Shown piece after piece: positions 10,488 through 55,734 of a stretch of DNA of 64,000 nt (position 1 is the stretch's first letter; every line of letters begins with the position of its first letter). Location: assembly GCA_035519555.1 (NCBI GenBank), contig DATIWG010000050.1, forward strand, positions 20,040 to 84,039. Reading direction: 5' to 3'. The notes under the pieces were generated by a model. That model was not told the DNA's origin. It ran no database searches and saw only the letters and a list, made by a program, of their open reading frames with translations. Source of the stretch: Nitrosotalea sp. (lineage in GTDB: Bacteria > Methylomirabilota > Methylomirabilia > Rokubacteriales > CSP1-6). The position numbers and the translations under genes were made by a program.

Positions 10488-10928
10488 CTACTCGGCCTTG
10501 ATCGGGATCGTGGTGCCCTTCGACGCCGGGGTCTTGGGCAGGGTCACGGTCAGCAGGCCATTCTTGAAGTTCGCGGTCACCTTGCTCGCGTCCACCGCCA
10601 CCGGGAGCCGGATGGTCCGGATGAACGCGCCGTAGGACCGCTCCACCCGATGAAAGCGCTCGTCCTTCTCTTCCTTCTCCTGCTTCTTCTCTCCCTTGAT
10701 CGTCAGCAGGTTCTCCTGGAGCGAGATCTGGATATCTTTCTGCTCCATCCCCGGCACCTCGACCTTGGCGACCAGGCTGTCCTTGGTCTCCGAGATGTCC
10801 ATGCTCGGCGTCCAGTCCCCGAGGGCCGGCAGGTCGTCCCACTTCATCTCGCCGAGGCGGTCGAACAGCTGATCCATCTCGCGCCTCAGGCTTCCCATTC
10901 CCGTCCACGGCATCAGGCCTCGCATCAT
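10488..10928 (-). CDS. Hsp20/alpha-crystallin small heat-shock protein
   Basis: Alpha-crystallin domain (...GLLTVTLPK...); strong Shine-Dalgarno directly upstream; the N-terminal extension in the track ORF is ignored. Confidence 0.85.
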   Translation of the reverse strand: MMRGLMPWTGMGSLRREMDQLFDRLGEMKWDDLPALGDWTPSMDISETKDSLVAKVEVPGMEQKDIQISLQENLLTIKGEKKQEKEEKDERFHRVERSYGAFIRTIRLPVAVDASKVTANFKNGLLTVTLPKTPASKGTTIPIKAE

Positions 10929-10983: not shown

Positions 10984-10999
10984 TGCATCGGAGGTGCCA
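10984..10999 (-). promoter_or_regulatory. Candidate sigma54 promoter (TGGCAC-N5-ATGCA)
   Basis: Read on the minus strand as TGGCACctccgATGCA, with correct GG-N10-GC spacing; the predicted TSS lies about 45 nt upstream of the Hsp20 ATG. Confidence 0.45.
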
Positions 11000-11131
11000 A
11001 GCAAACACCTCAGTGATTCAGCTGGTTGCCTCCCGGTGCAAGCCGGCCGCCCGAGGCGTTTGCGCCCCGGTGTGGCCCCGGCGCCCCAGCGGCGGACAGA
11101 GCCCGGGCCGATGTGGCGTGGCTTTACCTCG

Positions 11132-11147
11132 CGGCACCTGCCTTGCA
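11132..11147 (+). promoter_or_regulatory. Candidate sigma54 promoter (cGGCAC-N5-TTGCA)
   Basis: cGGCACctgccTTGCA lies about 40 nt upstream of the CBS gene ATG at 11189. Confidence 0.45.
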
Positions 11148-11188: not shown

Positions 11189-11611
11189 ATGCTCGGGAAG
11201 ATCTGCACCAAGCCGGTCGTCACCGCCTCGACCCAGATGACGGTCGACGAGGCGGCACGCGCGATGCGATCCAGGAACGTGGGCGCGCTCGTCGTGGTCA
11301 ATGCCGGACGGCCCGTCGGCATGCTGACCGACCGCGACATCGCCGTCGAGGTCGTGGCCCGGGGAATGGACCCGGACTCGACCCGCGTCGGTGACGTGAT
11401 GCGCAAGAAGCCCATGACCATCCGGGAGGACCTGGGCATCTTCGATGCCGCCAAGGCCTTCGCCAGGACCGGCGTCCGCCGGCTTCCCGTCGTCAGCAAG
11501 AGCGGGGTGCTGGTGGGCGTCATCGCGGTGGACGATCTGATCGTGCTGCTGGGCAACGAGCTCGGCCATCTAGCCGGCGCCCTGTCGGCCGGGCTGAGGC
11601 GGGCTTCGTAG
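11189..11611 (+). CDS. CBS domain pair protein
   Basis: 140 aa with two CBS motifs; AGGAGG Shine-Dalgarno 5 nt upstream of the ATG. Confidence 0.85.
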   Translation: MLGKICTKPVVTASTQMTVDEAARAMRSRNVGALVVVNAGRPVGMLTDRDIAVEVVARGMDPDSTRVGDVMRKKPMTIREDLGIFDAAKAFARTGVRRLPVVSKSGVLVGVIAVDDLIVLLGNELGHLAGALSAGLRRAS

Positions 11612-20459: not shown

Positions 20460-20936
20460 TCATCTCGCCGCCGCGTGGGCCGCCCGCTTGGCCACCTGGG
20501 CCTCGGTGGTCCGCATCAGGAACACGGGGATGTCGACCTGGCGGAGCACGGCCTGGGCGACCGACCCGAAGACGAGGCGGCCCAGCCCGCCGCGGCCGTG
20601 GGTGGACATCGCGATCAGGTCGGCGCCCGTCTCGCGGGCCGCCGCCACGATCTGTTCTTCCGGAGTGCCCCGCCGGACCCGGCTCTCCACCTTCACGCCC
20701 TTGTTGCGCAGCTCCACCGCGATCGGCGCCAGATACTCCCTGGCATCGGTCTGTCGCGCCTCGACGTCCTCCAGCTCGACGTACTGCGATCCCTCGATCA
20801 TCATCGGCCGGATCGGCTCGAGCACCCGCAGGAGGACGATCTCCATGTCGAGCGGACCCGCGATGTCGAGGATGAAGGGAATGATGGCTTCGGCCACCGG
20901 CGAGCCGTCGAGCGGTACGAGCGCACGCTTATACAT
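20460..20936 (-). CDS. Universal stress protein
   Basis: Usp motifs (ALVPLDGS, MSTHGRGGLGRLVFGSVA); the 40 aa N-terminal extension in the track ORF is ignored. Confidence 0.85.
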   Translation of the reverse strand: MYKRALVPLDGSPVAEAIIPFILDIAGPLDMEIVLLRVLEPIRPMMIEGSQYVELEDVEARQTDAREYLAPIAVELRNKGVKVESRVRRGTPEEQIVAAARETGADLIAMSTHGRGGLGRLVFGSVAQAVLRQVDIPVFLMRTTEAQVAKRAAHAAAR

Positions 20937-21420
20937 TGGACGTCTCCTTGGCGGGGCGGGCCTGACCCGTCCCCACGGGGGCCTTGGTGGGTGCCTCGGG
21001 GGCCCGCACCAGCAGGATCGGTGTCGTGGTTCCGCGCAGCACCGACTCGGCCACACTGCCCATGATCAGCCGGCCCAGCCCCCCGCGCCCGTGGGTGGTC
21101 ATCACGATCAGGTCGGCCTTGCGCGCACGGGCCGCGTCCACGATGACGGCGGCGGCGGACCCGTACCAGACGCTGGTCTCGACCTTGGTGACGCCCTGCT
21201 GGCCAAGCCGCCGGGCCACGCTCGCCAGATACTGTTCGGCCTCCTGAACCACATCCACCTGCGCGAGGGTGGGATCGACACCGGGGAACGTCTGGGCCTC
21301 GGCAGCGCGCACCAGCACGAGGGTGGCAAGGCCAGGACGACCCATCTCCACGGCCGTCTCGATGGCGGATTCCGCGAGAGCCGAGCCGTCGAGTGGAACC
21401 AGAACTCTCTCGATTTTCAT
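20929..21420 (-). CDS. Universal stress protein
   Basis: Usp motifs (VLVPLDGS, MTTHGRGGLGRLIMGSVA). Confidence 0.85.
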   Translation of the reverse strand: MKIERVLVPLDGSALAESAIETAVEMGRPGLATLVLVRAAEAQTFPGVDPTLAQVDVVQEAEQYLASVARRLGQQGVTKVETSVWYGSAAAVIVDAARARKADLIVMTTHGRGGLGRLIMGSVAESVLRGTTTPILLVRAPEAPTKAPVGTGQARPAKETSNV

Positions 21421-21455
21421 GGATGCCTGACCTCCCTCTCTGCAGGAGAGTCCCG

Positions 21456-21472
21456 TTGCAACGGAAGTGCCA
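21456..21472 (-). promoter_or_regulatory. Candidate sigma54 promoter (TGGCAC-N5-TTGCA, consensus)
   Basis: Read on the minus strand as TGGCACttccgTTGCAA, about 25 nt upstream of the first of three tandem usp genes and the downstream polX and ligA. Confidence 0.5.
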
Positions 21473-23453: not shown

Positions 23454-24014
23454 TCAGGCCTCGGCCCCCCAGCGCCCTGGCCGGGAGATCACGCCCTCGT
23501 CCAGCATCTGGATCACCGCCTTCAGCACGTCACCGACCGCGAGCATGCCGACCACCCGGTCGTGCTCCACCACCGGCACGGCCCCGATCTTGTTGGTATG
23601 GATCAGGTCGGCCGCCTCACGGAGCAAGGTATCTGGCTTCACGCTGATGGCGCCCCACGTCATCACCTCCTTGACGGTCCGGGTCCTGAGCACCCGGTCG
23701 AGGTCCTCGAACGCATCGCGGAGGGCGGGCTCGAGAACGGCCGATCGGAGGTCGCGGTCGCTCACCATGCCGGCAAGATGCCCCTTGTCGTCCACCACGG
23801 GAGCGTGGTGGATGCTCCGGGCCCGCATGGCGGTCATGACGGCGCCCACGGTCATCGCCTGGCGGAACGTCACCACCGGGCGCGTCATGACGTCACGGAC
23901 CCGCACCACGCCCTCCGGCCAGGCAGACTCCTCGATCTCGGCGCGCGCCCGGGCCGGGCGCTTCGGATTCCGGGTTCTGATGTCGCGGGTGATGGCTCGC
24001 TTCGGGTGTCTCAT
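23454..24014 (-). CDS. CBS domain pair protein
   Basis: Two CBS motifs; start chosen at the ATG preceded by GGAGGGG (M35 of the track ORF). Confidence 0.8.
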   Translation of the reverse strand: MRHPKRAITRDIRTRNPKRPARARAEIEESAWPEGVVRVRDVMTRPVVTFRQAMTVGAVMTAMRARSIHHAPVVDDKGHLAGMVSDRDLRSAVLEPALRDAFEDLDRVLRTRTVKEVMTWGAISVKPDTLLREAADLIHTNKIGAVPVVEHDRVVGMLAVGDVLKAVIQMLDEGVISRPGRWGAEA

Positions 24015-24216
24015 GGAGTCCCCTCCTGCTGGTTCTAGACAAACACTCAGTCCTGCAACCCGACTCCTGCAACCCGCCTGCCAGGCGGCCGATGACGGCG
24101 TTCGCTTCGGAAACACGACCTTGCTCGCCGACGGCTGGACTCCACCGAGGCATCTCCTCCTCGATCGAGGCGAGCAATCCCCACGCGGCCAGCGGCATGA
24201 CCGAGCAGATCGTCGG

Positions 24217-24988: not shown

Positions 24989-25252
24989 ATGGGCGATCTG
25001 AAGCGGACGGCAACGGGTCTCACGATCGGGCTGCTTGGAGCGGCGACCCTGCTGGCGGGCTGCGCAACCGGGCACATCGCCTGGGACAAGCCCGGCGTCA
25101 CCCAGGCCGAGAAAGAGCGGGACGAGAACACGTGTCTCCGCGCGGCGATCGGCGCCGACGGTGGCGGCACGCTGCTGGCTCCATTCTGCATCGACCGCGA
25201 GATCTACACCCGATGCATGGAGACCCGCGGTTACGCCGTCAGATCCCAGTGA
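24989..25252 (+). CDS. Small lipoprotein (hypothetical)
   Basis: 87 aa with lipobox LLAGC and two further Cys; GGGAGG Shine-Dalgarno 7 nt upstream. Confidence 0.6.
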   Translation: MGDLKRTATGLTIGLLGAATLLAGCATGHIAWDKPGVTQAEKERDENTCLRAAIGADGGGTLLAPFCIDREIYTRCMETRGYAVRSQ

Positions 25253-25934: not shown

Positions 25935-26477
25935 TCACCAGTAGCGGACCCGGCCGACGTCCACGTGGACGAAGTCCGAGTCGGGGTAGTAGCCGACACC
26001 ACCGGCCCGGAGCGCCTTGGCCGCGTCCCGGACGGTCGGGAGCGGCCGGTCCGGCACCCGGATATCGATCGCCATCCCGACGACGTGGAGGCTGCTGGCG
26101 GCGACGCCGGTCGAGGTCGCGACCAGCCGGGCATTCGTGGCGGGCGAGCGATAGCCGGAGATGACCTCGAAGGGCTCGGTGGTGTCGAGGCTATCGCTCA
26201 GCGCATCCAGCACGCCGAGGAGCCGCCGATCGATCGGGTGAACCTGGTTGGTTCGATGGTCCCGCAGAACCCGGTCGATCTGGCTCAGCGCCTCCCGGAG
26301 GTACTGCCCGGCGGCCCAGTACGTGGCTCGCACAAGCTCACCGGTGTGCACGCTACGGAGCGCGAGCGCGCGCGTGGCAGGAGGCGCGGCCCATCCCCGG
26401 GCGGGCAGGAGCAGACCGGCCGCCGCGGCGGCGCCGAGCGAAAGAAACCGGCGCCGCGATGTATCTCGCTGACTCAT
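25935..26477 (-). CDS. DUF882/YcbK (MepK-like) peptidase M15 family protein with Tat signal
   Basis: [16 protein letters not shown] twin-arginine signal and the conserved SGYRSPATN ... HVVGMAIDI core. Confidence 0.8.
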
Positions 26478-26485
26478 GCGCGTGC

Positions 26486-28198
26486 TCAGCCCGAGGCTTC
26501 CTTTCCCGGCGGCTGACAACCCCCAACGTCGCCGAACGCAACCGACCGAGGCGCGACCCCCGCGGGGGCCAGCATGGCGGCGAGGCGGCGGTCGCGCCCG
26601 TAGACGTCGTCCCGGAAGTGCACCAGGCCGTCCTGGCCGACGAACGCCGTCCAGTACAGTATGTACACGGGCAACGGGCGCGCAAGGGTGATCCTCGGCG
26701 AATCCCCCGCGGCGATGGCCTCATCGAGCGTCTGCCTCGTCCATCCGCCGGGACTCTCCGCCAGCACGTGCACCGCGAGATCGTCGGCCCGCTCGACCCG
26801 GATGCAGCCATGGCTGGCCGTCCGCACCGGACGCGCGAAGAGCGAGCGTACGGGCGTGTCGTGCAGGTAGACGTCGAACCGGTTCGGGATGTCGAACTTG
26901 ATCCGACCCAGCGGGTTGTCCGGCCCGGGCTGCTGCTGCAGTCGGAACGGGAACGGGTCCGTGGGAACGGCCGACCAGTCGACGGCGAAGCCGAACGGAT
27001 CGCTGCCACGCCGCTCCAGGATCACGATGTGATTGTCGGCCAGATACCGCGGGTTCTCGCGCAGGCGGGGCAGGATCTCCTCGACCGCGATCGAGAGCGG
27101 CACGTTCCACGTCGGATTGAGGATGACCGCCTCGAGCCGGGCCTGCACCACCGGGGTCGGGTGCCGGAGGTCGCCGACCACGACCCGCGACCTGAGCACC
27201 GTCCGACCCTCGGCGATGATCCGGAGCGTCGCGTCGGCGGCGTTGACGGTGACGTAGTGCGGTCCGAGATCCCGCGGGACCCAGCGCCAGCGCTCGAGGT
27301 TCCAGACGATCTGCTGGATGCGGTCGGCCGCCGGCACATTCAGGGCGCGGAGCGTCGCCGCGCCCACCGTCCCGTCCTCGGCGAGGCCATGGCGGGCCTG
27401 AAAGCGCCGCACCGCCTCCTCGAGCCGGTCATCGAAGCGCGTGTCGCCGGTCCGGGCCACGCTCTCGTCCTCCCCGGCGAGACGAGCCCGGAGCGCGGCC
27501 ACCCGATCGTCGTCGTCTCCCGGCTTCAACGCCGCGCCCGGAGGCACCGGCGACCAATCGCCGCGCGCCGCGATCGCGCGGTAACGCTGGAGGGCCTCGA
27601 CGAGCCGGCCGTACTCCTGGGCCGGCGGCGGCAGCGACGTCAGCAGCGCGCGAAAGCCGGCCGGCGAGCGGACGCCCGCCAGCGCCGAGACCGCGTCGAA
27701 CGGCGCCGCGGGAATCCCCCAGTCCGCCTGCACGAAGCCGGCCGGCCGGCGGCCCACGCGAACGTCGCTCGCGTAGCGAAGGAACGCGTCGGTCAGCAGC
27801 AGCTCGATCTCGGGCGTATCGACACCGGGGGCGCTTCGCTGCCGGGCGCGAATCGGCTCGAGATGGTAGCGCGCGGGCACGAGCCCGTGCGCGTCGGCGG
27901 TCACCAGGGCCTGGAGCAGCCGCGATGCGCGGTCGAGCCCATCGCGCCCGTCCCACGCGGGGGCAAAGTCTCGTGGCCGGTAGAACCGGCCGAGCGCCCG
28001 CGCGTCCAGCGGCCGGCCGTCGATGCGGACCTCGCCGCGCTGCTCCAGGAGCTCCCGCAGGCGGCGCGGGCTCACCGGGTCACCGCTCGCCTCCGCGGGC
28101 GCCGTCGCGATCGAGGCGGCGACGAGAATCACGCCCGCCGTCGTGATCAGGCGGCGGAGGCGCTCCCGCGCCAAGCGGCTCCCCGCGGCGCTCCTCAT
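26486..28198 (-). CDS. ldtD: L,D-transpeptidase, YcbB/LdtD-like
   Basis: Peptidoglycan-binding domain ([19 protein letters not shown]) and YkuD catalytic domain (SHGCIRV); ATG overlaps the lon stop (ATGA). Confidence 0.85.
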
Positions 28199-30597
28199 CC
28201 CGCGGCGGGGCGAACCGCGACGGCGGTGTCGGTGAGCGCGTGTCGCAGGACCTCTTCGGCGTCCTCGGCGAACACGAAAGCGAGCTGCCGGCGCAGCTCT
28301 TCCGGCACGTCGTCGAGGTCCCGCTCGTTCCGGGCGGGCAGGATCACGGTACGGATCCCCGCCCGGTGCGCAGCCAGGACCTTCTCCTTGATGCCGCCGA
28401 CCGGGAGCACCTTGCCGCGCAGGGTGATCTCGCCTGTCATGGCCAGGTCGTGGCGCACGGGGCGTCGCGTGGCGAGCGACGCCAGCGCGGTCACGATGGT
28501 CACGCCCGCCGACGGCCCGTCCTTCGGGATGGCTCCCGCGGGAACGTGCACGTGGATGGTCTGGCCCTCGAACAGCTTGGGATCGATGTCGAGCGTCTCG
28601 GCGTTGGATCTGACGTAGGAGACAGCCGCCTGCGCGCTCTCGCGCATCACGTCGCCGAGCATCCCGGTGAGGATCAGGCGCTCGTCACGGCTCGGCATCA
28701 TGGTGACCTCGACGAACAGGACGTCTCCGCCGCTCGGCGTCCACGCCAGGCCGGTGGCGACCCCGGGCCGCGCGGTCCGCTCGGCGACCTCGTCGAAGAA
28801 GCGCGGGCGGCCGAGATAGTCGGCGACCTGGTCGGCGGTGACCCGGACGCCCTGCCTCTGGCCTTCGGCCAGCCGGCGGGCGATCTTGCGGGTGATGCCG
28901 GCGATCTCCCGCTCGAGGCTGCGCACGCCCGCCTCGCGGGTGTATCCCCTCACGATCTGACGGATGGCCTCGGGCTCGAGGGTCAGCTCGTCCGCGGTGA
29001 GCCCGTGCGCGGCGACCTGCTTCGGGATCAGGTACTGGCGCGCGATGCCGATCTTCTCCTGGTCCGTGTAGCCGGACAGGGTCAGGATCTCCATGCGATC
29101 CCGCAGCGGCCCCGGAATGGTGTCGAGCGCGTTGGCGGTGGCGATGAAGAGGACCTGCGAGAGGTCGAACGGCACACCGAGGTAGTTGTCGACGAAGGTG
29201 TCGTTCTGGGCCGGATCGAGCACCTCGAGCAGCGCGGACGACGGATCGCCCCGCCAGTCGGCTCCGATCTTGTCGATCTCGTCGAGCATGAAGACCGGAT
29301 CCCGGGCCTCGGCGCGGCGAAGTCCCTGGATGATCCGTCCGGGGAGCGCGCCGATGTAGGTCCGGCGGTGGCCGCGAATCTCCGCCTCGTCGCGTACCCC
29401 GCCCAGTGACATGCGCGCGAACCGCCGGCCCAGCGCCCGCGCGATGCTCTGGCCGAGGCTGGTCTTGCCGACACCGGGCGGGCCCACGAAGCAGAGGATG
29501 GGCTCGCGCGAGTCGCCCGACGCGCGATCCGGGCCTCCCCCGCGCTCGTGCCGGAGCTTCTTGACGGCCAGATACTCGATGAGGCGATCCTTGATCTTCT
29601 CGAGATCGAAGTGGTCCTCGTCCAGGACCGCCCGGGCCCGGCCGATGTCGATGACACCCCCGTCGAGCTTGCGCCACGGCAGGCTGGCCATCCACTCGAG
29701 GTAGGTGGCGATCATGCCGTGCTCGGGCGAGGATGGCGAGAGATCGGCCAGCCGGGTGAGCTCCCGCTCCGCCTCGCGCCGCGCCTCGTCCGGCAGGCCG
29801 GCCTCCTCGATCCGTCGGCGCAGCTCGGCGACCTGCCCGTCGCCTTCTCGCTCCTCTCCGAGCTCCCGCTGGATCGAGTGCAGCTGCTCGCGCAGGTAAT
29901 ACTCTCGCTGCTTCTTCGAGAGTCGCTCCTCGGTCTCGGTGGTGATCTTCCGCCCCAGCTCCCGCACCGCCACCTCGCGCTGCAGCACGTCCACCAGCCG
30001 GCGGAGCTTGGCGCCGACCGGATCCATCTCGAGCAGCTCCTGTCGCACCGGCACCTCGAGCGGGACGATCGACGCCACGAAGTAGACGAGGTGGCGGGGC
30101 TCGGTGATGGCGTCCGCGGCCCCGCCCAGCTCGTCGGGCAGCTCCGGCGACGCCTCCACGAGCCGCCGGAAGATGTCGGACACCGCGCGCCGGAGCCCGT
30201 CCACCTCGGTCCCCGGCTCTCCCTGATCCGGGTCCGCCTCGACCCGCGCGACCAGATATGGCTCGGTGCTCACCCAGTCGAGGATCCGGATCCGCTCGAT
30301 CCCCTGCACGATCAGGCGCACGCCGCCGTCCGGGGACCGGGCGAGCTGGTGAATCATGCCGATGGTGCCGACGCGGTGGAGCGCCTCCGGCGCCGGCGAC
30401 TCCGCAGTGGCCTCGCGCTGGGCGACCAGCGCCAGTAGCCGGTTGCCCCGCATGACCTCGTCCACGAGCCGCACCGACCGCGGCTGGCCCACCACGAGGG
30501 GTGCCGCGGTGAATGGGAACACGACCGCGTCCCGTAGGGGCAAGACCGGGAGCGCGTCCGGGACCACGACGCCGGCGGGGCCGGCCGGATCCGCCAT
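28195..30597 (-). CDS. lon: ATP-dependent Lon protease
   Basis: LON N-terminal domain, AAA+ (GPPGVGKTS) and S16 protease domain (DGPSAGVT, catalytic Ser); start overlaps the Hsp20 stop (ATGA). The 157 aa N-terminal extension in the track ORF is spurious. Confidence 0.9.
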
Positions 30598-31007
30598 CAC
30601 CCGGCCCCCGCGCGCTTCGGCAGCGTGATGTGGAGCAGGCCGCGATCGTAGCGGGCCGCGACCCGCTCGGGGTCGACGGTGGCCGGAAGCGAAACCTCGA
30701 CCTGGAACGGGCCCTGGCGGATGCCGGCCTCGTGGTAGACGGCCCCCGCCGCGCACGACGGCAGGCGTCGGTGCCCCTCGACGACCAGCGCGTCGTCGAA
30801 GAGCTGGACCTCGAAGTCGTCCTCCTCGAGGCCGGCCAGGTCGACCGTCACCTCGATCGCGGTCGCGGTCTCGTAGGTATCCGCATCGGGCCGCCATCCG
30901 ACCCGCGCGAGCGGGCGGAGGCGGTCGGCCGGCCAGGCGTCTCCCGGCGGCCACGCCGCGGAGCGCACCACCATCGTGTAGCGGTAGCTCAAGCGCCGGT
31001 ATCGCAT
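30597..31007 (-). CDS. Hsp20 family small heat-shock protein
   Basis: Alpha-crystallin domain (GLLHITLPK); start could instead be M12 at 30974. Confidence 0.75.
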   Translation of the reverse strand: MRYRRLSYRYTMVVRSAAWPPGDAWPADRLRPLARVGWRPDADTYETATAIEVTVDLAGLEEDDFEVQLFDDALVVEGHRRLPSCAAGAVYHEAGIRQGPFQVEVSLPATVDPERVAARYDRGLLHITLPKRAGAG

Positions 31008-32365
31008 CCTGATCGTCGGACTCCCAGCTCATTCTGCCCGCGCGCGGGCTCCCGCGCCAGGAATGCATCGACGAGCGACCCGAGCGTGGGCTCCCCGGCG
31101 TCGGCGAACTCGTAGCGGGCGCGCACGACCGGCTTCTCGAGCGCGATCAGGGCAGCCAGATCGAGCGGGGTGGCCGCCACCACGACGTCCGCGGCGGCCG
31201 CGTTGATCGTCTCGCGAAGCCCCTCCAGCTGATCGGCATCGTAGCCGACCGCGGGGAGCACGGGGCCGATGTGGGGATACCGGGCGAAGATCGCCCGCAC
31301 CCCGGGTGACGCGGACCTTCGGGGATCGACGATCGTCGCCGCGCCCGCCCTCGTGGCCGCGACCCAGCCCGCCCCGTACGGCATGCCTCCGTGAGTGAGG
31401 GTCGGCCCGTCCTCCACCACGAGCACCCGTCGTCCGCGCACCGCGTCGGGATCCTCGAGGCGGACGGGAGAGGCCGCTCGCACGATCGGGGCGCGCGCGT
31501 TGAGCGCACGGACCTCGCTGAACACCGCTTCGACACTGCCGGCCGGGGCCACATCCACCTTGTTGATGACGACGATGTCGGCCATCCGCAGCACGGCCTC
31601 GCCGGGATGGTAGCCATCGGCCTGCCCGGGCCGGAGGGCGTCGGCCACGACGATGTGCAGATCGGGCCGCAGGAGCGGGAAGTCGTTGTTGCCGCCGTCC
31701 CACACGATCAGATCGGCCTCGCGCTCCGCTCGCGCGACGATGGCCGCGTAGTCCACTCCCGCGAACACGACGTGCCCCGCGGCCAGATGCGGCTCGTACT
31801 CCTCGCGCTCCTCCGCGGTGCAGCGCGCGGCGTCGAGATCCGCCGCCTGCGCGAATCGCTGCACGCGCTGGCGCTCCAGATCGCCGTACGGCATCGGGTG
31901 CCGCAGCACCGCGACCCGGAGGCCGCGGTCGCGGAGGCGCCGGCCGAGCCAGCGCGCGGTCTGGGACTTGCCGCAGCCCGTCCGGATCGCCGAGATCGCG
32001 ATGACCGGCACCGCGGCCGGCAGCATCGTGCGGCGCGGGCCGAGCAGCTCGAAGTCCGCGCCCGCGGCGAGGGCCCGCGAGGCCAGATGCATCACGGTGG
32101 CATGCGGGACGTCGCTGTACGCGAACACCACGCGGTCCACTCGCTCGCGCCGGCAGATCGCCTCGAGGTCGGCTTCGTCCTCGATGGGAATGCCGTCGGG
32201 ATAGCGCGCGCCCGCGAGGGAAGCCGGGTACCGACGGTCGCTGAGTCGGGGGATCTGGGCCTGCGTGAACGCGACCACGGAGACGCCCGGGTCGTCGCGA
32301 TAGACCACGTTGAAGTTGTGGAAGTCGCGCCCGGCCGCGCCCAGGATCACGATTCGAGTCGGCAC
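30989..32365 (-). CDS. COG2403 family protein (cyclic 2,3-diphosphoglycerate synthetase-like predicted GTPase)
   Basis: 458 aa; N-terminal RIVILGAAGRDFHNFN and internal CGKSQT P-loop-like motif; the family assignment is from memory of COG2403/CPGS. Confidence 0.65.
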   Translation of the reverse strand: MPTRIVILGAAGRDFHNFNVVYRDDPGVSVVAFTQAQIPRLSDRRYPASLAGARYPDGIPIEDEADLEAICRRERVDRVVFAYSDVPHATVMHLASRALAAGADFELLGPRRTMLPAAVPVIAISAIRTGCGKSQTARWLGRRLRDRGLRVAVLRHPMPYGDLERQRVQRFAQAADLDAARCTAEEREEYEPHLAAGHVVFAGVDYAAIVARAEREADLIVWDGGNNDFPLLRPDLHIVVADALRPGQADGYHPGEAVLRMADIVVINKVDVAPAGSVEAVFSEVRALNARAPIVRAASPVRLEDPDAVRGRRVLVVEDGPTLTHGGMPYGAGWVAATRAGAATIVDPRRSASPGVRAIFARYPHIGPVLPAVGYDADQLEGLRETINAAAADVVVAATPLDLAALIALEKPVVRARYEFADAGEPTLGSLVDAFLAREPARGQNELGVRRSGCDTGA

Positions 32366-32369
32366 CGGG

Positions 32370-32804
32370 TCACCAGAGGAAGAGGTCGCTCTCGACGTCG
32401 CGTCCCTTTCTCAGCGCGGCGAAGACATCGCGCTCGGTCAGGATCCCCACCAGGCGACCATCCGCCACCACCGGGAGGCTGCCGATCCTCCGCTGGAACA
32501 TGGTCAGGGCCGCCTGGACCAGGTCCGTGTCGGCGTGCGTGGTCACGACCGACCACGTCATCACGTCCCTGACTCTCGGGGCCTTCACCCGGTGGGGCGC
32601 CCAGCCCGCGTGCTCGGCCAGCGCGGGCATGAAGGCGGCATGCCGGAGATCACGATCGGTCACGATCCCGAGCACGTGCGCCTCCCCATCGACGACCGGG
32701 AGGTGTCGGATGCCCTTGCTCCGCATCAGATCCGTCGCCTCCTTCACCTGCGCGTCGAGCTCCACCACCACCGGATGCTCCGTCATCACGTCCCGGACTT
32801 TCAT
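32370..32804 (-). CDS. CBS domain pair protein
   Basis: Two CBS motifs. Confidence 0.85.
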   Translation of the reverse strand: MKVRDVMTEHPVVVELDAQVKEATDLMRSKGIRHLPVVDGEAHVLGIVTDRDLRHAAFMPALAEHAGWAPHRVKAPRVRDVMTWSVVTTHADTDLVQAALTMFQRRIGSLPVVADGRLVGILTERDVFAALRKGRDVESDLFLW

Positions 32805-32806
32805 GG

Positions 32807-33148
32807 CTATCCTTCCGCCCGGCTCGGAGCCATCGGGAGCGACCCGGCCGGGGGCGTCTTCTCGTCTTCGGCTCCGGGGTTCAGGATCGCCTGCAGCTCC
32901 TTCCCCATCTTGAAGAACGGCACCGCCCGCGCGGGGACGTCCACGCGGACGCCCGTCTTGGGGTTGCGGGCCACGCGCGCCCGCCGCCGGCGGACGGTGA
33001 AGGTGCCCAGACCGCGCAGGTCCACGCGCTCGCCCTGCTTCAACGCGTCGATGATCCGCTCGAACACCGCGGTCACGACCGCGTCACTCACATGGCGCGT
33101 GAGGCCGGCCACCCGGGCCACTTCCTCCACCAGGTCGCTCTTGTTCAT
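32807..33148 (-). CDS. HU/IHF family DNA-binding protein
   Basis: 113 aa (MNKSDLVEEVA ... GLGTFTVRRR...RNPKTG ...) with a C-terminal extension. Confidence 0.85.
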   Translation of the reverse strand: MNKSDLVEEVARVAGLTRHVSDAVVTAVFERIIDALKQGERVDLRGLGTFTVRRRRARVARNPKTGVRVDVPARAVPFFKMGKELQAILNPGAEDEKTPPAGSLPMAPSRAEG

Positions 33149-33165
33149 GGTCCCCCACGGGTAGC

Positions 33166-33182
33166 TTGCAACTGTGCTGCCA
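33166..33182 (-). promoter_or_regulatory. Candidate sigma54 promoter (TGGCAG-N5-TTGCA)
   Basis: Read on the minus strand as TGGCAGcacagTTGCAA, about 10-20 nt upstream of the HU-like gene; heads a 7.2 kb coupled operon. Confidence 0.4.
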
Positions 33183-33300
33183 TGGAGCCGACCGGGCCAA
33201 ACGCCACGATCCCACATGGTTATGCGGTGGGCTCGTCCGATCTGGATGGGGCGGCCTCTCCTCAGCTGGGGCGCGACGGCCTCGAGCCATCCCCTCCCGG

Positions 33301-34296
33301 TCACGCAAGACGGGTCAGCTCGTCCCGGGACGACCACTCGAAGCGCACCCGCTTGCCGCCTCGATGCGCGTCGACACCCCGCCCGGGCTTGACCGTGCCG
33401 ATCACCGCCGCGGGAACGCGGAGGCCACCGACCGCATCGAGCAGGCGCTTCACGCGGCGCTCGGGGATCGTCAGCAGCAAGGCCCCGGAGCCGATCAGTC
33501 CGAGCGGGCGCAGGCCGAAGTGCGTGCACAGGCGAGCCGTGTGGGAATGCACGGCAATGGCATCGAGGTCGACGACCAGGCGGCGGCCCGACGCAGTGGC
33601 GAGCTCGAAGAGGGCGGCGGCGACCCCGCCCTCGGTCGGATCGTGCATCGCCGTCGCGCCGGTCCGGGCCGCCATCAAGGCTTCCCGCACCACCGAGATT
33701 CCGGGCCGGTGATTGAACCGGGCGGCCTCGCGCTGCGCGCGGCCGCCGAGCGCCTGTCGAGCCTCGCGAGGAAATCGACGCGCGAGGATCGACGTGCCCT
33801 CGATCCCGGCGAACTTCGTCAGGATGAGGCGATCGCCGACCCGCGCGCCGGCCGCCGTCACCAGGCCGTCCCGTGGGACCAGTCCCTGCATGTCACCAGC
33901 CACGATGGGCCGCTTCACGGCGGTGGAGATCTCGGTGTGCCCGCCGGTGACGGCGATGCCCAGCCCGCGAGCGCTCCGGTCGATGTCCTTGAAGATCTTC
34001 CTCACCGTGCCGGCACCGGTGCCAGGGGGCACGATGATCGTGGACTGAAACCACGCCGGCCGGGCCCCCATCACCGCCACGTCGTTGGCGTTGACGTGCA
34101 CGGCGTACCAGCCCGCTTCCTCGGCGGTGAACGTGACCGGGTCACTCTTCAGGATCAGGTACTGCCGCCCGAGATCGATCACCGCGGCATCGAGGCCGAA
34201 GGCCGGCCCCTGCACGACGCGACGATCGGAAGCTCCGTGAAACCGCAGCAGCCGCCGCAGAAGCGCAGGCGGCAGCTTGCCGGGAAGCAGCGCCAT
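33301..34296 (-). CDS. AIR synthase-related (PurM-like) protein, HypE-like
   Basis: 332 aa with the HypE-type N-terminus (GKLPPALLRRLL...) and PurM-like domains; no hydrogenase genes nearby. Confidence 0.75.
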   Translation of the reverse strand: MALLPGKLPPALLRRLLRFHGASDRRVVQGPAFGLDAAVIDLGRQYLILKSDPVTFTAEEAGWYAVHVNANDVAVMGARPAWFQSTIIVPPGTGAGTVRKIFKDIDRSARGLGIAVTGGHTEISTAVKRPIVAGDMQGLVPRDGLVTAAGARVGDRLILTKFAGIEGTSILARRFPREARQALGGRAQREAARFNHRPGISVVREALMAARTGATAMHDPTEGGVAAALFELATASGRRLVVDLDAIAVHSHTARLCTHFGLRPLGLIGSGALLLTIPERRVKRLLDAVGGLRVPAAVIGTVKPGRGVDAHRGGKRVRFEWSSRDELTRLA

Positions 34297-34322
34297 CTGA
34301 TCGGAAGGTCGCGCGCGCCTGC

Positions 34323-34874
34323 CTAGCGCGGAGATGCAGGAGGAGGCGGCGGCGGTGTTCCGGCCGGCGGCGGCGGAACATCCGGGGCCCTGGGAGCAGG
34401 CGGAGGTGGCGGCGAGCTGTACGGCTCCGACCCGCGGCTCACGGGAACCTGATTGCCCTTGGCGTACATGCATTGCATGTAGGCCATGTCGTACTGCTGC
34501 TGAGTCGCCTGGCCGCTCACGTCCCCACGGCTCGCGCCGACCGCGGTCCCTCCGAGGAGGCCAACGCCGGCTCCCGCGGCGGCCCCGGTCGCGGGGCCAC
34601 CGGCCGCGGCTCCGATCGCGGCACCGGCAGCCGCGCCGACGAGGGTCCCGACCGCCGCGCCCGTGGCCGTGCTCCCGACGGACGACTGGCCCGGAGTGAT
34701 CCCGGTCTGCTGCGCTGCCCACTGGCGGCACACGATGTCGTCGACCTGGAACTGGTCGAAGCTTTTCCCGGTGCCCGGCAGCACCATCACGCTCGGCCCG
34801 CTCGGCACCGTGGTGCAGGCCGCCACAAGCAGGCTCGTCAGTAGCGGCGCGAGGACAGCTGGTCGCATCATCAT
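34323..34874 (-). CDS. Glycine-zipper lipoprotein (hypothetical)
   Basis: Lipobox LVAAC, Gly/Ala zipper (GAAVGTLVGAAAGAAIGAAAGG) and a Pro-rich C-terminal tail; ATG overlaps the upstream stop (ATGA). Confidence 0.6.
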   Translation of the reverse strand: MMMRPAVLAPLLTSLLVAACTTVPSGPSVMVLPGTGKSFDQFQVDDIVCRQWAAQQTGITPGQSSVGSTATGAAVGTLVGAAAGAAIGAAAGGPATGAAAGAGVGLLGGTAVGASRGDVSGQATQQQYDMAYMQCMYAKGNQVPVSRGSEPYSSPPPPPAPRAPDVPPPPAGTPPPPPPASPR

Positions 34875-35206
34875 GGCTGTGGCGGCACCTTCACCCATTC
34901 CTCTGGACAGGTCTGAACCGACGGGTAGTACGCATGAGCGCTCCGACAATAGTACCAGTAGACGGGCGGCGGAGGAGGCGCCGGCCGCTCGATGTACACC
35001 TGTGGCTCCTGGATGACGACCGGCGGATAGTAGTAGGGGGGCGGGTACCACCAGTATGGGCCCCAGAAGGGCGGTCCCCACCAGGGGCCGACCCCGACGA
35101 ATACTCCGCCATGCCAGTGACCGTGAGACGCATGACCCGGCGCGGCACCGCCGAGAACCACCAGCCCGACGATCAGCAACCCGAGCACCGCCGAGGTCCT
35201 AGTCAT
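34871..35206 (-). CDS. Small secreted Pro/Tyr/Trp-rich protein with C-terminal YWYYC..YYP..CP..W motif
   Basis: 111 aa with signal peptide and a conserved-looking C-terminal Cys pair; GGGAGGA Shine-Dalgarno upstream. Confidence 0.55.
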   Translation of the reverse strand: MTRTSAVLGLLIVGLVVLGGAAPGHASHGHWHGGVFVGVGPWWGPPFWGPYWWYPPPYYYPPVVIQEPQVYIERPAPPPPPVYWYYCRSAHAYYPSVQTCPEEWVKVPPQP

Positions 35207-35240
35207 AGCGGGTACGATCCTCCCTAGCCGCTCAACCATC

Positions 35241-44135: not shown

Positions 44136-44151
44136 TGGCAACCGGGTTGCA
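44136..44151 (+). promoter_or_regulatory. Candidate sigma54 promoter (TGGCAA-N5-TTGCA)
   Basis: TGGCAAccgggTTGCA lies about 65 nt upstream of the nadE GTG. Confidence 0.45.
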
Positions 44152-44214
44152 CGGGAAGGCCCGGTCACGCGGGAACGTGACCGAGGAGGCGCGGTTCAAC
44201 ATCCTGCTGGTGAA

Positions 44215-46302
44215 GTGCCGGAGGACCGTGTGCGAGCGGACGACGACTTCTTCAATCTCTACAATCACGATCTCGTGCGCGTCGCGGTGGCCGTGCCCGC
44301 GGTGCGCGTCGCCGACCCGGCCTTCAATGCGCGGCAGGTCGCCGGGTTGATCGCCGAGGCGACCGAGCGTCGGGCGGTCGCGGTCCTCTTTCCCGAGCTC
44401 TGCCTCTCCGCCTACTCCTGCGAGGATCTGTTCCACCAGGCAGCCCTCCTCCAGGAGTGCCAGACCGCGCTGGGGGAGATCCTCGACGCGACGCGAGCCC
44501 ACCCGGTCATGGCCGTGGTCGGGGTACCGCTGGTCGTCGACCACCTGCTGTACAACTGCGCGGTCGTGCTGGGCCGGGGGCAGGTGCTCGGAGTGGTGCC
44601 CAAGACCTACCTGCCCAACTACCGGGAGTTCTACGAGCGGCGGCAGTTCACATCCGGCGATGCCACCGTGCGCGACACGATCGATTGCTGCGGTCAGCAC
44701 GACGTGCCGTTCGGCACCGATCTGCTCTTCCAGCTCGAGCAGCAGCCGCTCGCGACGTTTCACGTGGAGATCTGCGAGGACCTGTGGGTGCCGGTACCGC
44801 CGTCCTCCGATGCGGCGCTGGCGGGAGCGACGGTCCTGCTGAATCTGTCGGCCTCCAACGTCACGGTGGCCAAGGCCGATTACCGGCGCCTGCTCGTGGC
44901 GAGCCAGTCCGCCCGCTGCCTCGCCGCCTACCTCTATTCGGGCGCGGGCTACGGGGAGTCCACCACCGACCTGGCCTGGGACGGTCACGCGGTGATCTAC
45001 GAGAACGGAGATCTCCTGGCCGAGTCCCGTCGATTCAGCTACGACCCGCAGCTCGTCTGCGCCGAGATCGACCTCGAGCGATTGGCCCAGGAGCGCATGC
45101 GGCAGTCCAGCTTCGGCCAGGCGGCGGAGCGGTACCGGGATCGGCTACGTCGGTTCCGCCGGGTTCGGCTGCGCCTTCCCCTGCCGCGGCGCGCACGGCT
45201 GCTGCCGGAGCGCCGCTACGAGCGCTTCCCGTACGTGCCGTCGGACCCGGAGCGGCGTGACGCGCGGTGCGCCGAGGTGTTCGAGATCCAGGTGCAGGGG
45301 CTCGTCAAGCGGCTGCAGTTCACGGGCCTCCAGCACGTGGTGATCGGCGTCTCGGGCGGGCTCGACTCGACCCACGCCCTGCTCGTCTGCGCCCAGGCCA
45401 TGGACGTCCTGGGCCATCCGCGCGGCCACATCCTCGCCTACACGATGCCGGGCTTCGCCACGAGCCGCCGCACCCTCGACCAGGCGCACCGGCTCATGCG
45501 CGCCGTCGGCGCCACCGCCCACGAGCTCGACATCAGGCCGAGCGCGGCGCAGATGCTCACCGATATCGGTCATCCATCCGGTCGGGGCGAGCCGGTCTAC
45601 GACGTCACGTTCGAGAACGTCCAGGCGGGCGAGCGCACGAGCCACCTCTTCCGCCTGGCGAATCTCCACGGGGCCCTGGTCGTCGGAACGGGCGATCTCA
45701 GCGAGCTGGCCCTCGGCTGGTGCACCTACGGCGTAGGCGACCACATGTCGCACTACGCCGTCAACGCCAGCGTGCCGAAGACGCTGATCCAGCACGTGAT
45801 CCGCTGGCTCGCCCAGGCGGATCGCCTAGGCGCCGAGGCCAGCGAGACCTTGCTCGAGATCCTCGGTACCGAGATCAGCCCCGAGCTGATCCCCGGCGAT
45901 GCGGATGCGGATCCGGCGCACCCGGCGCAGCAGACGGAAGCCGTGGTCGGCCCCTTCGAGCTGCAGGACTTCAACCTGTACTACACCCTGCGCTTCGGGT
46001 ACCCGCCGCCGAAGGTGGCCTTCCTGGCGTACTGCGCCTGGCGTGACCGGAGCCAGGGTCTGTGGCCCGACGTCCCTCCAGGCGAGCGCCGTCAGTACGG
46101 GATCGAGTCGATCAAGGCGCACCTCGGCCTCTTCCTCGATCGCTTCTTCCGGCTGAGCCAGTTCAAGCGGAGCGCGATACCCAACGCGCCGAAGGTCGGA
46201 TCGGGCGGTTCGCTGTCGCCGCGCAGCGACTATCGGGCTCCGAGCGACAGCGAGGCGGCGGTCTGGCTCCGCCAGCTCGACCTCATTCCGGATCGCGAGT
46301 AG
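44215..46302 (+). CDS. nadE: Glutamine-dependent NAD+ synthetase (large, nitrilase-domain type)
   Basis: N-terminal CN-hydrolase domain and C-terminal NAD synthetase domain (GVSGGLDST); GTG start, with an alternative GTG at 44230. Confidence 0.9.
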
Positions 46303-48155: not shown

Positions 48156-48575
48156 TCAGTCTTCCTCGAGCCGGCTCTGCAGCGCCCGCAGCACGTCCAC
48201 GTAGCTGATGATCCCGATCACGCTTCGGGTCCCCGTCTCGACCACCGGGAGGGCGCCGATCTTGTGATCGATGAGGAGGTCGATCACCTCGATCGCTTCC
48301 GCGTCCGGCTCGACGAAGATCACGTCCGGCTGCATGACGCTGAGCACCGGGGTGGCCAGTGCCTGCTGCAGCGCATCCACGCCCTGGACGTTGAGCACCC
48401 GGACGAGATCGAGCCGGGCCAGGTCGCGGTCGCTCAGCATGCCCACCAGGCTGGCGCCCTCGACGACCGGGACATGTCGGATATCCGCCTCGCGCATCAG
48501 GTCCCATACCTCCGCGATGCTCGTCTTGGGCGTCACGGTTGCCACGTCCGGAGTCATCAGGTCACGGGCAATCAT
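48156..48575 (-). CDS. CBS domain pair protein
   Basis: Two CBS motifs; AAAGGAG Shine-Dalgarno 7 nt upstream. Confidence 0.85.
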   Translation of the reverse strand: MIARDLMTPDVATVTPKTSIAEVWDLMREADIRHVPVVEGASLVGMLSDRDLARLDLVRVLNVQGVDALQQALATPVLSVMQPDVIFVEPDAEAIEVIDLLIDHKIGALPVVETGTRSVIGIISYVDVLRALQSRLEED

Positions 48576-48604
48576 CGGCGTGCTCCTTTCGTCTCGATCC
48601 GATA

Positions 48605-48620
48605 CGCAAGCGTGGTGCCA
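48605..48620 (-). promoter_or_regulatory. Candidate sigma54 promoter (TGGCAC-N5-TTGCG)
   Basis: Read on the minus strand as TGGCACcacgcTTGCG; the predicted TSS is about 19 nt upstream of the CBS ATG and would drive the CBS, S2P-CBS and BON genes. Confidence 0.45.

Positions 48621-53934: not shown

Positions 53935-53938
<4 letters not shown>
52973..53938 (-). CDS. 2-oxoacid dehydrogenase E1 alpha subunit (TPP-binding)
   Basis: TPP motif ([31 protein letters not shown]); start overlaps the acs stop (ATGA). Confidence 0.9.
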
Positions 53939-55710
<1,772 letters not shown>

Positions 55711-55734
55711 CGATGGCCTCTCCTCCAGGTGGGG

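Follow-up and report, generated by a model that had tools for sequence, protein, structure and literature searches.

A mosaic operon with a putative sigma-54-dependent promoter and a probable ArcE-family enzyme in a Methylomirabilota lineage

In a window of 64 kb (the whole stretch of 64,000 nucleotides that was analysed), seven closely packed genes on the minus strand (25935..33148) raise the question of whether functions as diverse as DNA bending, protein quality control and peptidoglycan remodelling are expressed as one unit, and what the COG2403 protein encoded among them does. Pfam and NCBIfam profiles recovered all seven identities given in the preliminary description: HU-like, CBS, COG2403, small heat-shock protein (sHsp), Lon, LdtD and MepK-like.

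The first gene (32807..33148) encodes an HU/IHF-family DNA-binding protein of 113 residues (PF00216, Bac_DNA_binding, E 3e-23), whose top NCBIfam match, IHF-beta, scores 85.9 bits, under the cutoff of 115; an SD-like GGGGGA lies 5 nt ahead of its ATG. After a 2-nt gap it is followed by a stand-alone CBS-pair (Bateman) protein of 144 residues (32370..32804; PF00571, two stretches, E 2e-32), and the CBS gene is immediately upstream of the COG2403 gene in every close relative examined. The CBS and COG2403 genes are separated by 4 nt, and the COG2403 gene (30989..32365, minus strand) overlaps the sHsp gene by 19 nt, where residues 444-458 of the COG2403 protein form a disordered tail peculiar to this organism. 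At the sHsp/Lon junction the sequence reads GTGATG, and not ATGA at 30597 as had been stated: the last base of the sHsp TGA stop (30599..30597) is also the first of the Lon ATG (30597..30595). An alternative Lon start, GTG at 30600, would give a 4-nt overlap with the sHsp stop; the gene calls in relatives use the 1-nt version. The Lon stop and the LdtD start do overlap by 4 nt as ATGA (28198..28195), and LdtD and MepK are separated by 8 nt if the latter starts at ATG, or overlap by 34 nt if it starts at TTG. The packing, described earlier as free of gaps, is indeed tight, but gaps of 2, 4 and 8 nt occur beside the overlaps of 19, 1-4 and 4 nt.

The sigma-54 site reported at the operon head was located at 33182..33167 on the minus strand. 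This -24/-12 element, TGGCAG-CACAG-TTGCA, has GG at 33181-33180 and GC at 33169-33168 (GG-N10-GC), bears one mismatch to TGGCAC-N5-TTGCW, and ends 18 nt before the HU ATG. Both TGGCAGC and TTGCA are invariant across six related loci, within an intergenic alignment that is 66% identical, which places the site beyond chance; the element is also found in locus L169. The leader is predicted to be very short (about 9 nt), which was counted against the explanation favoured here.

Upstream of the promoter lies an enhancer-like motif, GCCCCAGCTGAGGAGAGGCCGCCCCA (33247..33272, minus strand), with the consensus GCCCC-N4-GGGG-N7-8-GCCCC. Its start lies 90 nt before the -24 element, and it is conserved upstream of HU in six loci. 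Among 29 sigma-54 sites, 13 have the motif 67-102 nt upstream at a score of <=1, compared with 1.3% of random 140-nt segments. The motif is a putative binding site for a sigma-54 activator, although it is G+C-rich in a genome of 70% G+C and could have a role other than that of an enhancer. The spacer between this motif and the -24 box carries, where its G+C content is lowest, a conserved G.GATC...G...TT element (33199..33213, minus strand; invariant alignment columns G88, G90, A91, T92, C93, G97, T101 and T102) that may be a bending site for HU/IHF, with a weak match to the IHF consensus.

All ten sigma-54 sites of the window (<=1 mismatch) stand 2-63 nt ahead of a candidate start codon, and eight of the ORFs behind them have a Pfam family (three CBS, and one each of Usp, HSP20, NadE, AMP-binding enzyme and HU). 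Similar placements were seen in loci L001, L003, L004, L086 and L087. In the window and its relatives, Usp, CBS, HSP20, NadE and Acs-like genes are repeatedly preceded by this promoter type and by the upstream motif, in keeping with the theme of stress, protein quality control and cell wall proposed earlier. Since the motif is common to so many sigma-54 promoters, the operon would be part of a larger stress regulon. Neither a GAFTGA activator nor an rpoN gene was found in the window, and 14 related loci likewise had none.

The gene content of the related loci varies by blocks. Loci L169-L171 contain all seven genes, as does L086, which has a Usp-BON insert after HU. In L001 and L003 the order is HU-CBS-COG2403-LdtD-MepK, without sHsp-Lon, and in L087 it is HU-CBS-COG2403-sHsp-Lon, with no LdtD-MepK; L085, a 4.6-kb contig, matches the window to its end, into the gene after sHsp. 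Three modules make up this mosaic operon: the conserved HU-CBS-COG2403 core, and the cassettes sHsp-Lon and LdtD-MepK, which relatives have or lack independently of one another.

The spacing and conservation of the genes suggest that all seven are co-transcribed from the one sigma-54 promoter. Conversely, the seven genes could be merely adjacent, with HU, CBS-COG2403, sHsp-Lon and LdtD-MepK each having promoters of their own and the sigma-54 promoter serving HU or the first module alone. The modules are separable in evolution, and the Usp gene between HU and CBS in L086 has its own sigma-54 promoter. However, intergenic distances of -19 to +8 nt are too small to accommodate promoters outside the coding sequence, and each cassette, when present, lies in the orientation of the rest of the operon, with stop and start codons that overlap or nearly do so. 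No further sigma-54-like site (<=2 mismatches) was found inside 25935..33148, and no sigma-70-like site was found there by a scan that covered the sigma-70 consensus only, which may not match the promoter types of the host, as those of the phylum are little characterised. A single terminator-like hairpin was detected (28299..28282, inside lon), as many as the 1.0 expected by chance. Independent transcription of the modules is, on this balance, unlikely.

For the sHsp-Lon cassette, the first product is an atypical HSP20 protein of 136 residues (30597..31007, minus strand; PF00011, E 3e-15), which in the alignment stops at the alpha-crystallin domain, without an I-x-I tail. The second is a LonA protease of 800 residues from ATG 30597, or 801 from GTG 30600 (28195..30597, minus strand; TIGR00763, 912.6 bits, cutoff 608), with LON_substr_bdg, AAA, Lon_lid and Lon_C domains, the Walker A sequence GPPGVGKT and the Ser/Lys dyad motifs PKDGPSAG and GGIKEK. 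The sHsp gene directly precedes lon in all loci examined, and the pair is also found elsewhere without the rest of the operon, behind opp or cation-ATPase genes. In E. coli, the sHsps IbpA/B and Lon have misfolded clients in common, and the ibpB promoter is sigma-54-dependent. The window pair differs from these in that the two genes are translationally overlapped in a fixed two-gene cassette and in that the sHsp has no C-terminal I-x-I. Genes for sHsps and chaperones have been reported to be under sigma-54 control across phyla (PMC12316311); no description of such an overlapped sHsp-Lon cassette was found in the searchable papers.

For the LdtD-MepK cassette, the first product is a YcbB/LdtD-type L,D-transpeptidase of 570 residues (26486..28198, minus strand), with an N-terminal signal or anchor, Scaffold, PG_binding_1 and YkuD domains and the catalytic SHGCIRV motif; its NF007891 score of 259 bits is under the E. 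coli-type equivalog cutoff of 425. It is followed by a MepK-type peptidoglycan L,D-endopeptidase (25935..26477, minus strand; NF053624, 203.8 bits, cutoff 185; PF05951, E 2e-53) of 180 residues from ATG, or 194 from TTG 26519, with a Tat motif, SRRRFL, and a weak TAT_signal profile match. The likeness to E. coli drawn in the preliminary description was confirmed, as ldtD (ycbB) and mepK (ycbK) are adjacent there and match the window pair in both families and in order. The E. coli pair is Cpx-regulated. It stands alone after mukB, whereas the window pair closes a sigma-54 operon as its 3' cassette, one that some close relatives lack. Among these relatives both cassettes, sHsp-Lon and LdtD-MepK, come and go; the seven genes are not indivisible.

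The COG2403 gene encodes a P-loop protein of 458 residues, a "predicted GTPase" for which NCBIfam has no naming model. Its nearest solved folds by Foldseek are the archaeal cyclic 2,3-diphosphoglycerate synthetase (cDPGS) and then LpxK (4EHY). It shares these features with ArcE (TK2200) of Thermococcus kodakarensis, which was characterised in 2024 as an arginine synthetase (arginine + ADP + Pi <-> citrulline + NH3 + ATP) and described as an annotated putative GTPase encoded near arcB/arcC, with a 4EHY-like pocket, weak cDPGS similarity and a wide distribution in bacteria (PMC11032458). Both are P-loop proteins of about 450 residues that have an LpxK-like nucleotide pocket and resemble cDPGS weakly (PMC11032458, PMC13260591), and both belong to families that are widespread in bacteria and archaea and often adjoin arcB, for ornithine carbamoyltransferase (OTC), and arcC, for carbamate kinase (CK).

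This partnership with CK and OTC is the published signature of ArcE (PMC11032458). In the COG2403 family, 56 of 170 loci have CK and/or OTC genes in the neighbourhood (both in 18), the direct downstream neighbour being CK-like in 37 loci and OTC in nine, and one protein, P0124, is a natural AA_kinase-COG2403 fusion whose kinase part is a carbamate kinase. The CK-like neighbours score 260 bits, below the arcC equivalog cutoff of 358. The window protein is probably an ArcE-family arginine synthetase, an assignment that draws on genomic context, fold and annotation signature rather than on a direct alignment with TK2200, and it would have the corresponding activity. No assayed bacterial ArcE member was found in the searchable literature. 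Unlike TK2200, the window gene is not beside arcB/arcC and instead follows CBS in a sigma-54 stress operon that also encodes Lon and peptidoglycan enzymes.

The protein of this lineage could instead have a role other than that of an arginine synthetase, either as an NTPase in regulation or maturation (G3E/HypB-like) or as an ArcE paralogue that acts on a new substrate and was recruited to the stress operon. The sequence contains a canonical NKVD (G4-like) motif, left unexplained by the preference of TK2200 for ADP over GDP (PMC11032458), and gives weak cobW/HypB/MeaB matches; no CK or OTC gene was found in the 64-kb window, and in other lineages the adjacent gene encodes not CK but a cyclophilin-like protein, a DegT aminotransferase or a protein that was read by eye as arginyl-tRNA synthetase. 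In contrast, homologues with CK directly downstream (L002 and L088) are 77-80% identical to the window protein, and every invariant or near-invariant family residue is retained. Conservation across phyla and domains is very high, with 53-57% identity to Bathyarchaeia, as is typical of metabolic enzymes and not of switches, and the architecture is of the two-domain cDPGS/LpxK type, not a bare G domain. We consider such a switch or new substrate improbable, and the ArcE assignment is retained.

The first reading of the gene, as a cyclic-2,3-diphosphoglycerate-type compatible-solute synthetase which would link the making of an osmolyte or thermolyte to the chaperone, protease and wall-remodelling functions of the operon, is very improbable, and a compatible-solute function is not supported: 2,3-DPG ligands K145 and R146 of the M. 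fervidus cDPGS P-loop GTGKRIGKT (PMC10690619) are replaced in the window RTGCGKS by T129 and G130, which sit within the family-conserved motif R-T-G-x-G-K-S, identity is 14% (Foldseek), and the genes conserved beside the family encode CK and OTC and are neither glycolytic nor for a 2-PG kinase. The profile match of 30989..32365 to cDPGS is real and full-length but remote (E 1.7e-19 to 9sxb, 1e-14 to 8ork/8oru; Foldseek E 4e-17). Archaeal cDPGS (M. fervidus 8ORK/8ORU; 9SXB), the best solved-structure match, shares the N-terminal domain and P-loop kinase-like domain, and some COG2403 homologues carry the NCBI name "cyclic 2,3-diphosphoglycerate synthase". However, the central motifs differ: block 155-215 (RHPMPYG, EEREEYE, GVDY) is left unmatched when the protein is aligned to cDPGS by HMM, and NKVD occupies the place of cDPGS ITMCEE. 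In addition, cDPG is reported solely from hyperthermophilic methanogens (PMC10690619). The view that bacteria have no described enzyme of this kind is not supported: the family is very common in bacteria, with >8000 matches, and occurs in many phyla, and bacterial ArcE homologues are mentioned in PMC11032458.

Overall, the region is probably a sigma-54-dependent transcription unit that drives a mosaic operon with an ArcE-family enzyme and belongs to a multi-operon sigma-54 regulon. A putative enhancer-binding protein would bind GCCCC-N4-GGGG-N7-8-GCCCC about 90 nt upstream of the promoter and switch on the seven tightly coupled genes. The first module would supply an HU/IHF-like DNA-bending protein, a CBS energy sensor and the conversion of arginine to ATP by the ArcE-family enzyme; sHsp-Lon would serve protein quality control, and LdtD-MepK would make and trim 3-3 peptidoglycan cross-links. 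A metabolic hand-over between Lon proteolysis and ArcE may exist, and the activator and the signal to which it would respond are likewise putative.

The M. tuberculosis DosR dormancy regulon is similar in gene content (Usp, CBS and maintenance genes) and is not known to be sigma-54 dependent. The low-oxygen NmpR regulon of Myxococcus xanthus (PMC11841059) is likewise a multi-operon system of Usp/CBS maintenance genes, and is of the sigma-54/NtrC type, with -24/-12 promoters and paired upstream activator sites; its enhancer, however, is GCGCA-N5-TGCGC. All parts of the window operon are of known kinds, and the combination alone is specific to the lineage (Methylomirabilota/Rokubacteria). Within a regulon rich in Usp, CBS, HSP20, NadE and acyl/acetyl-CoA-synthetase-like genes, the operon would contribute to a maintenance- or dormancy-type programme.

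The seven open reading frames on the minus strand, running from 33148 to 25935, could each be assigned clearly to a family. The first encodes an HU/IHF-family protein (32807..33148) and is followed by a stand-alone CBS pair (32370..32804), a 458-residue P-loop protein of the COG2403 family (30989..32365) with no Pfam family above threshold, an HSP20 small heat-shock protein (sHsp; 30597..31007; PF00011, E 3e-15), a full-length LonA protease (28195..30597/30600; TIGR00763), a YcbB/LdtD-type L,D-transpeptidase (26486..28198; PF20142, PF01471, and PF03734), and an L,D-endopeptidase of the MepK type carrying a twin-arginine signal (25935..26477; NF053624). The junctions are tight: 2 nt separate the HU and CBS genes, 4 nt the CBS and COG2403 genes, and 8 nt the LdtD and MepK genes, and the COG2403 gene overlaps the sHsp gene by 19 nt. 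At the Lon-LdtD junction, the stop and start codons overlap as ATGA (28198..28195), as the preliminary description had reported; it had also given ATGA for the sHsp-Lon junction, the sequence of which is actually GTGATG, so that the overlap there is 1 or 4 nt. The family assignments and the tight junctions thus confirm seven genes of the kinds originally proposed. The G+C content of the window is ~70%, and the closest relatives of its proteins are found in metagenome bins of Methylomirabilota or 'Candidatus Rokubacteria'. The upstream neighbor of the operon, located immediately ahead of the HU promoter, encodes an AIRS-domain protein (PurM/HypE/ThiL-type; 33301..34299). According to gene calls, this position is kept in four related loci (L003 and L169-L171), and apparently also in L085-L087, as seen from conserved 3' coding sequence.

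For LonA, the TIGR00763 score was 912.6 bits (cutoff, 608), all four of the Pfam domains were found, covering the N-terminal substrate domain, the AAA+ domain, and the S16 protease domain, and the translation shows [16 protein letters not shown] and GGIKEK for the Ser-Lys dyad. For the L,D-transpeptidase, the scaffold (PF20142), peptidoglycan-binding (PF01471), and YkuD (PF03734) domains each exceeded their cutoffs, and the HGC active site is present as SHGCIRV. The score against the E. coli-type equivalog was 259 bits, below the cutoff of 425, and the protein is therefore a member of the YcbB/LdtD family whose orthology to LdtD is unproven. For the MepK-type protein, NF053624 scored 203.8 bits, above the equivalog cutoff of 185, and the DUF882/M15 domain (PF05951) was matched with an E value of 2e-53; the twin-arginine motif reads SRRRFLSLG, with a weak Pfam TAT match (17.2 vs 22.7 bits).

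The sHsp encoded before Lon contains an alpha-crystallin domain and lacks the C-terminal I-x-I tail, as do all of the aligned Lon-linked homologues, whereas the tail is present in the alignment for the other HSP20 of the window. A tail-less sHsp of this kind may serve as a Lon adaptor. The Lon-preceding sHsps of the window and of the related loci L086, L087, and L169-L174 form a distinct subfamily with the conserved N-terminus MRYRRLSYRY, and stop right after the alpha-crystallin domain. Whichever gene lies upstream, the sHsp stop and the lon start have 1 nt in common in every locus examined.

The arrangement of these genes differs among relatives. Three loci from separate samples (L169-L171) have exactly the gene order of the window, and on a 4.6-kb contig (L085), which encodes an identical COG2403 protein, the order matches as far as the contig reaches. 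Two loci (L001 and L003), whose COG2403 proteins are 87-88% identical to that of the window, have HU-CBS-COG2403-LdtD-MepK without sHsp-Lon; conversely, L087 has HU-CBS-COG2403-sHsp-Lon and then ends, without LdtD-MepK. In L086, the seven genes are joined by a Usp-BON pair inserted after HU, the Usp gene having its own sigma-54 promoter, and in L004 the COG2403 gene stands alone within a Usp/CBS/HSP20 island. The sHsp-Lon pair with its 1-nt overlap was also found following oligopeptide-transporter genes and following a cation ATPase, and in E. coli ldtD-mepK is a free-standing pair. These results indicate that the seven-gene unit is real but specific to its lineage, being assembled from a core (HU, CBS, and COG2403) and two portable cassettes. 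What the seven genes have in common is regulation, not one biochemical pathway.

The COG2403 protein had initially been read as a cyclic 2,3-diphosphoglycerate synthetase (cDPGS)-like enzyme supplying a compatible solute. Remote homology to cDPGS, the part of this reading that stood, is clear. In a PDB search with the single sequence, cDPGS was matched weakly (E 1.7e-3), and a profile of 25 family sequences reached 9SXB with an E value of 1.7e-19 and the M. fervidus enzyme with 1e-14. In the AlphaFold (AF2) model (pLDDT 92.3), the predicted overall fold and domain order are in common with cDPGS, which was the best solved Foldseek match over the whole length (8oru; E 4e-17, 14% identity, TM 0.47, 489 aligned columns), followed by LpxK (4ehy; E 3e-9, TM(target) 0.62) and then HypB-type GTPases.

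The P-loop ligand residues do not follow this similarity. In the cDPGS P-loop, G-T-G-K-R-x-G-K-T, K145 and R146 hold 2,3-DPG (PMC10690619), and in the HMM alignment these positions are occupied by T129 and G130 of R-T-G-C-G-K-S; R-T-G is invariant in an alignment with seven closer homologues and is the majority sequence in the 25-sequence family alignment. The other cDPGS ligands are E45/K46 (from the partner subunit), D208, E305, T353, E404, and K406, of which D208 lies in a region left unaligned by the HMM. The family has NKVD at the position of ITMCEE in cDPGS, and nothing in cDPGS corresponds to its conserved central block (RHPMPYG, EEREEYE, GVDY, and WDGGNND). Membership among the cDPG synthetases was rejected on the basis of the P-loop ligand residues and the genomic context, and with 14% identity, K145/R146 replaced, and carbamate kinase (CK) and ornithine carbamoyltransferase (OTC) as partners in the family, the compatible-solute reading was not supported.

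Two further observations concern this comparison. The window protein is 5-11 residues longer than its relatives (447-453 aa), and the extra C-terminal tail (residues 444-458; 30989..31033), through which the gene comes to overlap the sHsp start by 19 nt, is predicted to be disordered (pLDDT <50); it has the appearance of a shifted stop codon, not of a functional extension. In addition, an incomplete protein encoded in a Rubrobacter MAG (P0338) is 44% identical to the C-terminal half of the true M. fervidus cDPGS, so genuine cDPGS-type enzymes, apart from the ArcE-like family, may exist in some bacteria; the query in that search was a fragment reconstructed from a PDB alignment, and the matches are C-terminal fragments only.

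The features of the COG2403 family correspond to those of ArcE, the arginine synthetase described as TK2200 in Thermococcus kodakarensis, which catalyzes arginine + ADP + Pi <-> citrulline + NH3 + ATP (PMC11032458; PMC13260591). ArcE homologues are 'annotated as putative GTPase', lie near arcB (OTC) and arcC (CK), and are widespread in bacteria, and ArcE resembles LpxK (4EHY) and, weakly, cDPGS (PMC11032458). The P-loop NTPase fold, the LpxK (4EHY)-like pocket, and the weak cDPGS similarity are all matched by the predicted model of the window protein. In flanks of 6-10 kb fetched for 170 loci, CK and/or OTC was found near the COG2403 gene in 56, with both in 18, and the next gene downstream was CK-like in 37 loci and encoded OTC in 9. 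A natural AA_kinase-COG2403 (CK-COG2403) fusion also occurs (P0124). The window gene itself, however, stands without arcB/arcC alongside, and a search of the window for CK, OTC, and cyclophilin-like partners found none. The homologues of L002 and L088, in which CK is directly next downstream, are 77-80% identical to the window protein, which keeps every invariant family residue. Neither Pfam nor NCBIfam has a model under the name of the COG2403/ArcE family, and no ArcE chain was among the PDB entries searched. Since the CK/OTC clustering, the fold, and the annotation are those published for ArcE, and the CK-linked homologues are so close, the window COG2403 protein likely belongs to the ArcE family, as judged from gene context, modeled fold, and annotation signature, and is a putative arginine synthetase.

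The family has >8000 matches, and 576 cluster representatives at E<=1e-30 in a 50%-identity representative library, and was found in many bacterial phyla and in archaea, at 53-80% identity. With this distribution, and with the published bacterial ArcE homologues (PMC11032458), the statement that no such enzyme is described in bacteria is not supported; the literature searched contained no assayed bacterial ArcE member. In Bathyarchaeia and some bacteria, a cyclophilin-like protein (PF04126) follows the COG2403/ArcE homologue instead of CK/OTC, and a DegT-type aminotransferase often precedes the homologue in these loci. In some Chloroflexota loci, an arginyl-tRNA synthetase-like gene, judged by eye, precedes it. 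The loci with such other neighbors include L040, L043, L047, L065, L083, L123, L127, and L146.

The operon is preceded by a sigma-54-type promoter, TGGCAG-CACAG-TTGCA (33182..33167, minus strand), which has the GG-N10-GC spacing and whose end lies 18 nt ahead of the HU ATG. Across the six aligned HU upstream regions, with an overall column identity of 66%, TGGCAGC and TTGCA do not vary, and the same element precedes the operon in L169. Scans inside the gene string revealed no further sigma-54-like sites (<=2 mismatches) and no sigma-70-like sites; the single intrinsic-terminator hairpin inside the operon, within lon, equals the chance expectation, and no clear terminator was found 3' of the mepK-type gene.

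Scanning the window for the consensus TGGCAC-N5-TTGCW (<=1 mismatch, with GG and GC retained) gave 10 sites, and each of them is followed, after 2-63 nt, by a candidate start codon. A Pfam family could be assigned to eight of the ORFs so preceded, namely three encoding CBS proteins and one each for a Usp, a canonical HSP20, a glutamine-type NAD synthetase, an AMP-binding (Acs-like) enzyme, and the HU protein of the operon. In related loci the pattern is the same, the sites there preceding ORFs that resemble Usp, CBS, and HSP20 proteins in their N-terminal sequences. A motif, GCCCC-N4-GGGG-N7-8-GCCCC, recurs ~67-102 nt upstream of the sigma-54 promoters; in a scored scan with a random-segment control, 13 of 29 promoters had this dyad-plus-half-site at score <=1, compared with 1.3% of random 140-nt segments (~35-fold). 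The copy belonging to the operon lies at 33272..33247 (minus strand). We infer that the motif is a putative site of a common enhancer-binding protein. When the 64-kb window and 14 related loci were searched with the motifs GAFTGA, ESELFGH, and the RpoN box, no rpoN or activator genes were found.

Elsewhere in the window, two sigma-54-like promoters are divergently arranged at 10984..11147, one (10999, minus strand) leading to the canonical HSP20 (10488..10928) and the other (11132, plus strand) to a CBS protein (11189..11611), with GCCCC/GGGG-type repeats between them, as if a single enhancer were used for both. Further sigma-54-type promoters (0-1 mismatch) belong to 20929..21472, 23454..24083, 48156..48620, 44136..46302, and 53935..55750, where the targets are the Usp gene, two CBS genes, the glutamine-type NAD synthetase, and the AMP-binding (Acs-like) enzyme. 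Two small secreted or lipoprotein-like ORFs without a Pfam family (34871..35239 and 24989..25252) also lie behind sigma-54-like sites; one is very rich in Pro, Tyr, and Trp, and a lipobox-like LLAGC occurs in the other. Taken as a whole, the window resembles a section of a large sigma-54 stress/maintenance island. Among known systems, sHsp and chaperone genes are reported to be under sigma-54 in several phyla (PMC12316311), and Myxococcus xanthus has a sigma-54/NtrC-type low-oxygen regulon that includes Usp genes, although its enhancer sequence differs from the window motif (PMC11841059). The idea of a stress programme was broadly right as regards a sigma-54 regulon of Usp, CBS, and HSP20 genes, and was not supported in its compatible-solute component.

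In the probable mode of working, a signal, for which energy, oxygen, or nutrient limitation would be plausible from the regulon content, would act through an enhancer-binding protein on sigma-54 RNA polymerase at 33182..33167. The HU/IHF-like first product may aid DNA looping or nucleoid compaction, the CBS protein is a candidate for sensing adenylates on behalf of ArcE, damaged proteins would be dealt with by Lon and the tail-less sHsp, and the wall would be rebuilt with 3-3 cross-links by LdtD and MepK. Archaeal ArcE is itself slow before ADP accumulates (PMC11032458). That Lon proteolysis feeds ArcE metabolically is attractive but purely speculative. The full version, in which ArcE was uncoupled from arcB/arcC and rewired with CBS, sHsp-Lon, and the 3-3 enzymes into a sigma-54 regulon under an undescribed enhancer, as a survival module where Lon frees arginine, ArcE makes ATP from it by substrate-level phosphorylation as ADP accumulates, and the wall is re-cross-linked for non-growth, is in our estimate unlikely. 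If true, no physiological context would have been proposed earlier for an arginine synthetase of bacteria.

All parts of the operon are of known kinds, and what is modestly new is the lineage-specific assembly, ArcE in a stress operon, and the common enhancer motif; as no part is new in kind, the findings are useful for annotation and for generating hypotheses and are not a surprise. The bacterial genes of this family labeled 'cyclic 2,3-diphosphoglycerate synthase' or 'predicted GTPase' most likely encode ArcE, which conserves energy, was not recognised until 2024, and has so far been assayed only from an archaeon, and a mis-annotation is thereby corrected. The conserved -24/-12 promoter and the common upstream motif, which precede many maintenance genes, provide a concrete model of regulation that can be tested in a soil phylum without cultivated members. 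The arrangement suggests joint deployment of proteolysis, 3-3 cross-linking, and ATP derived from arginine.
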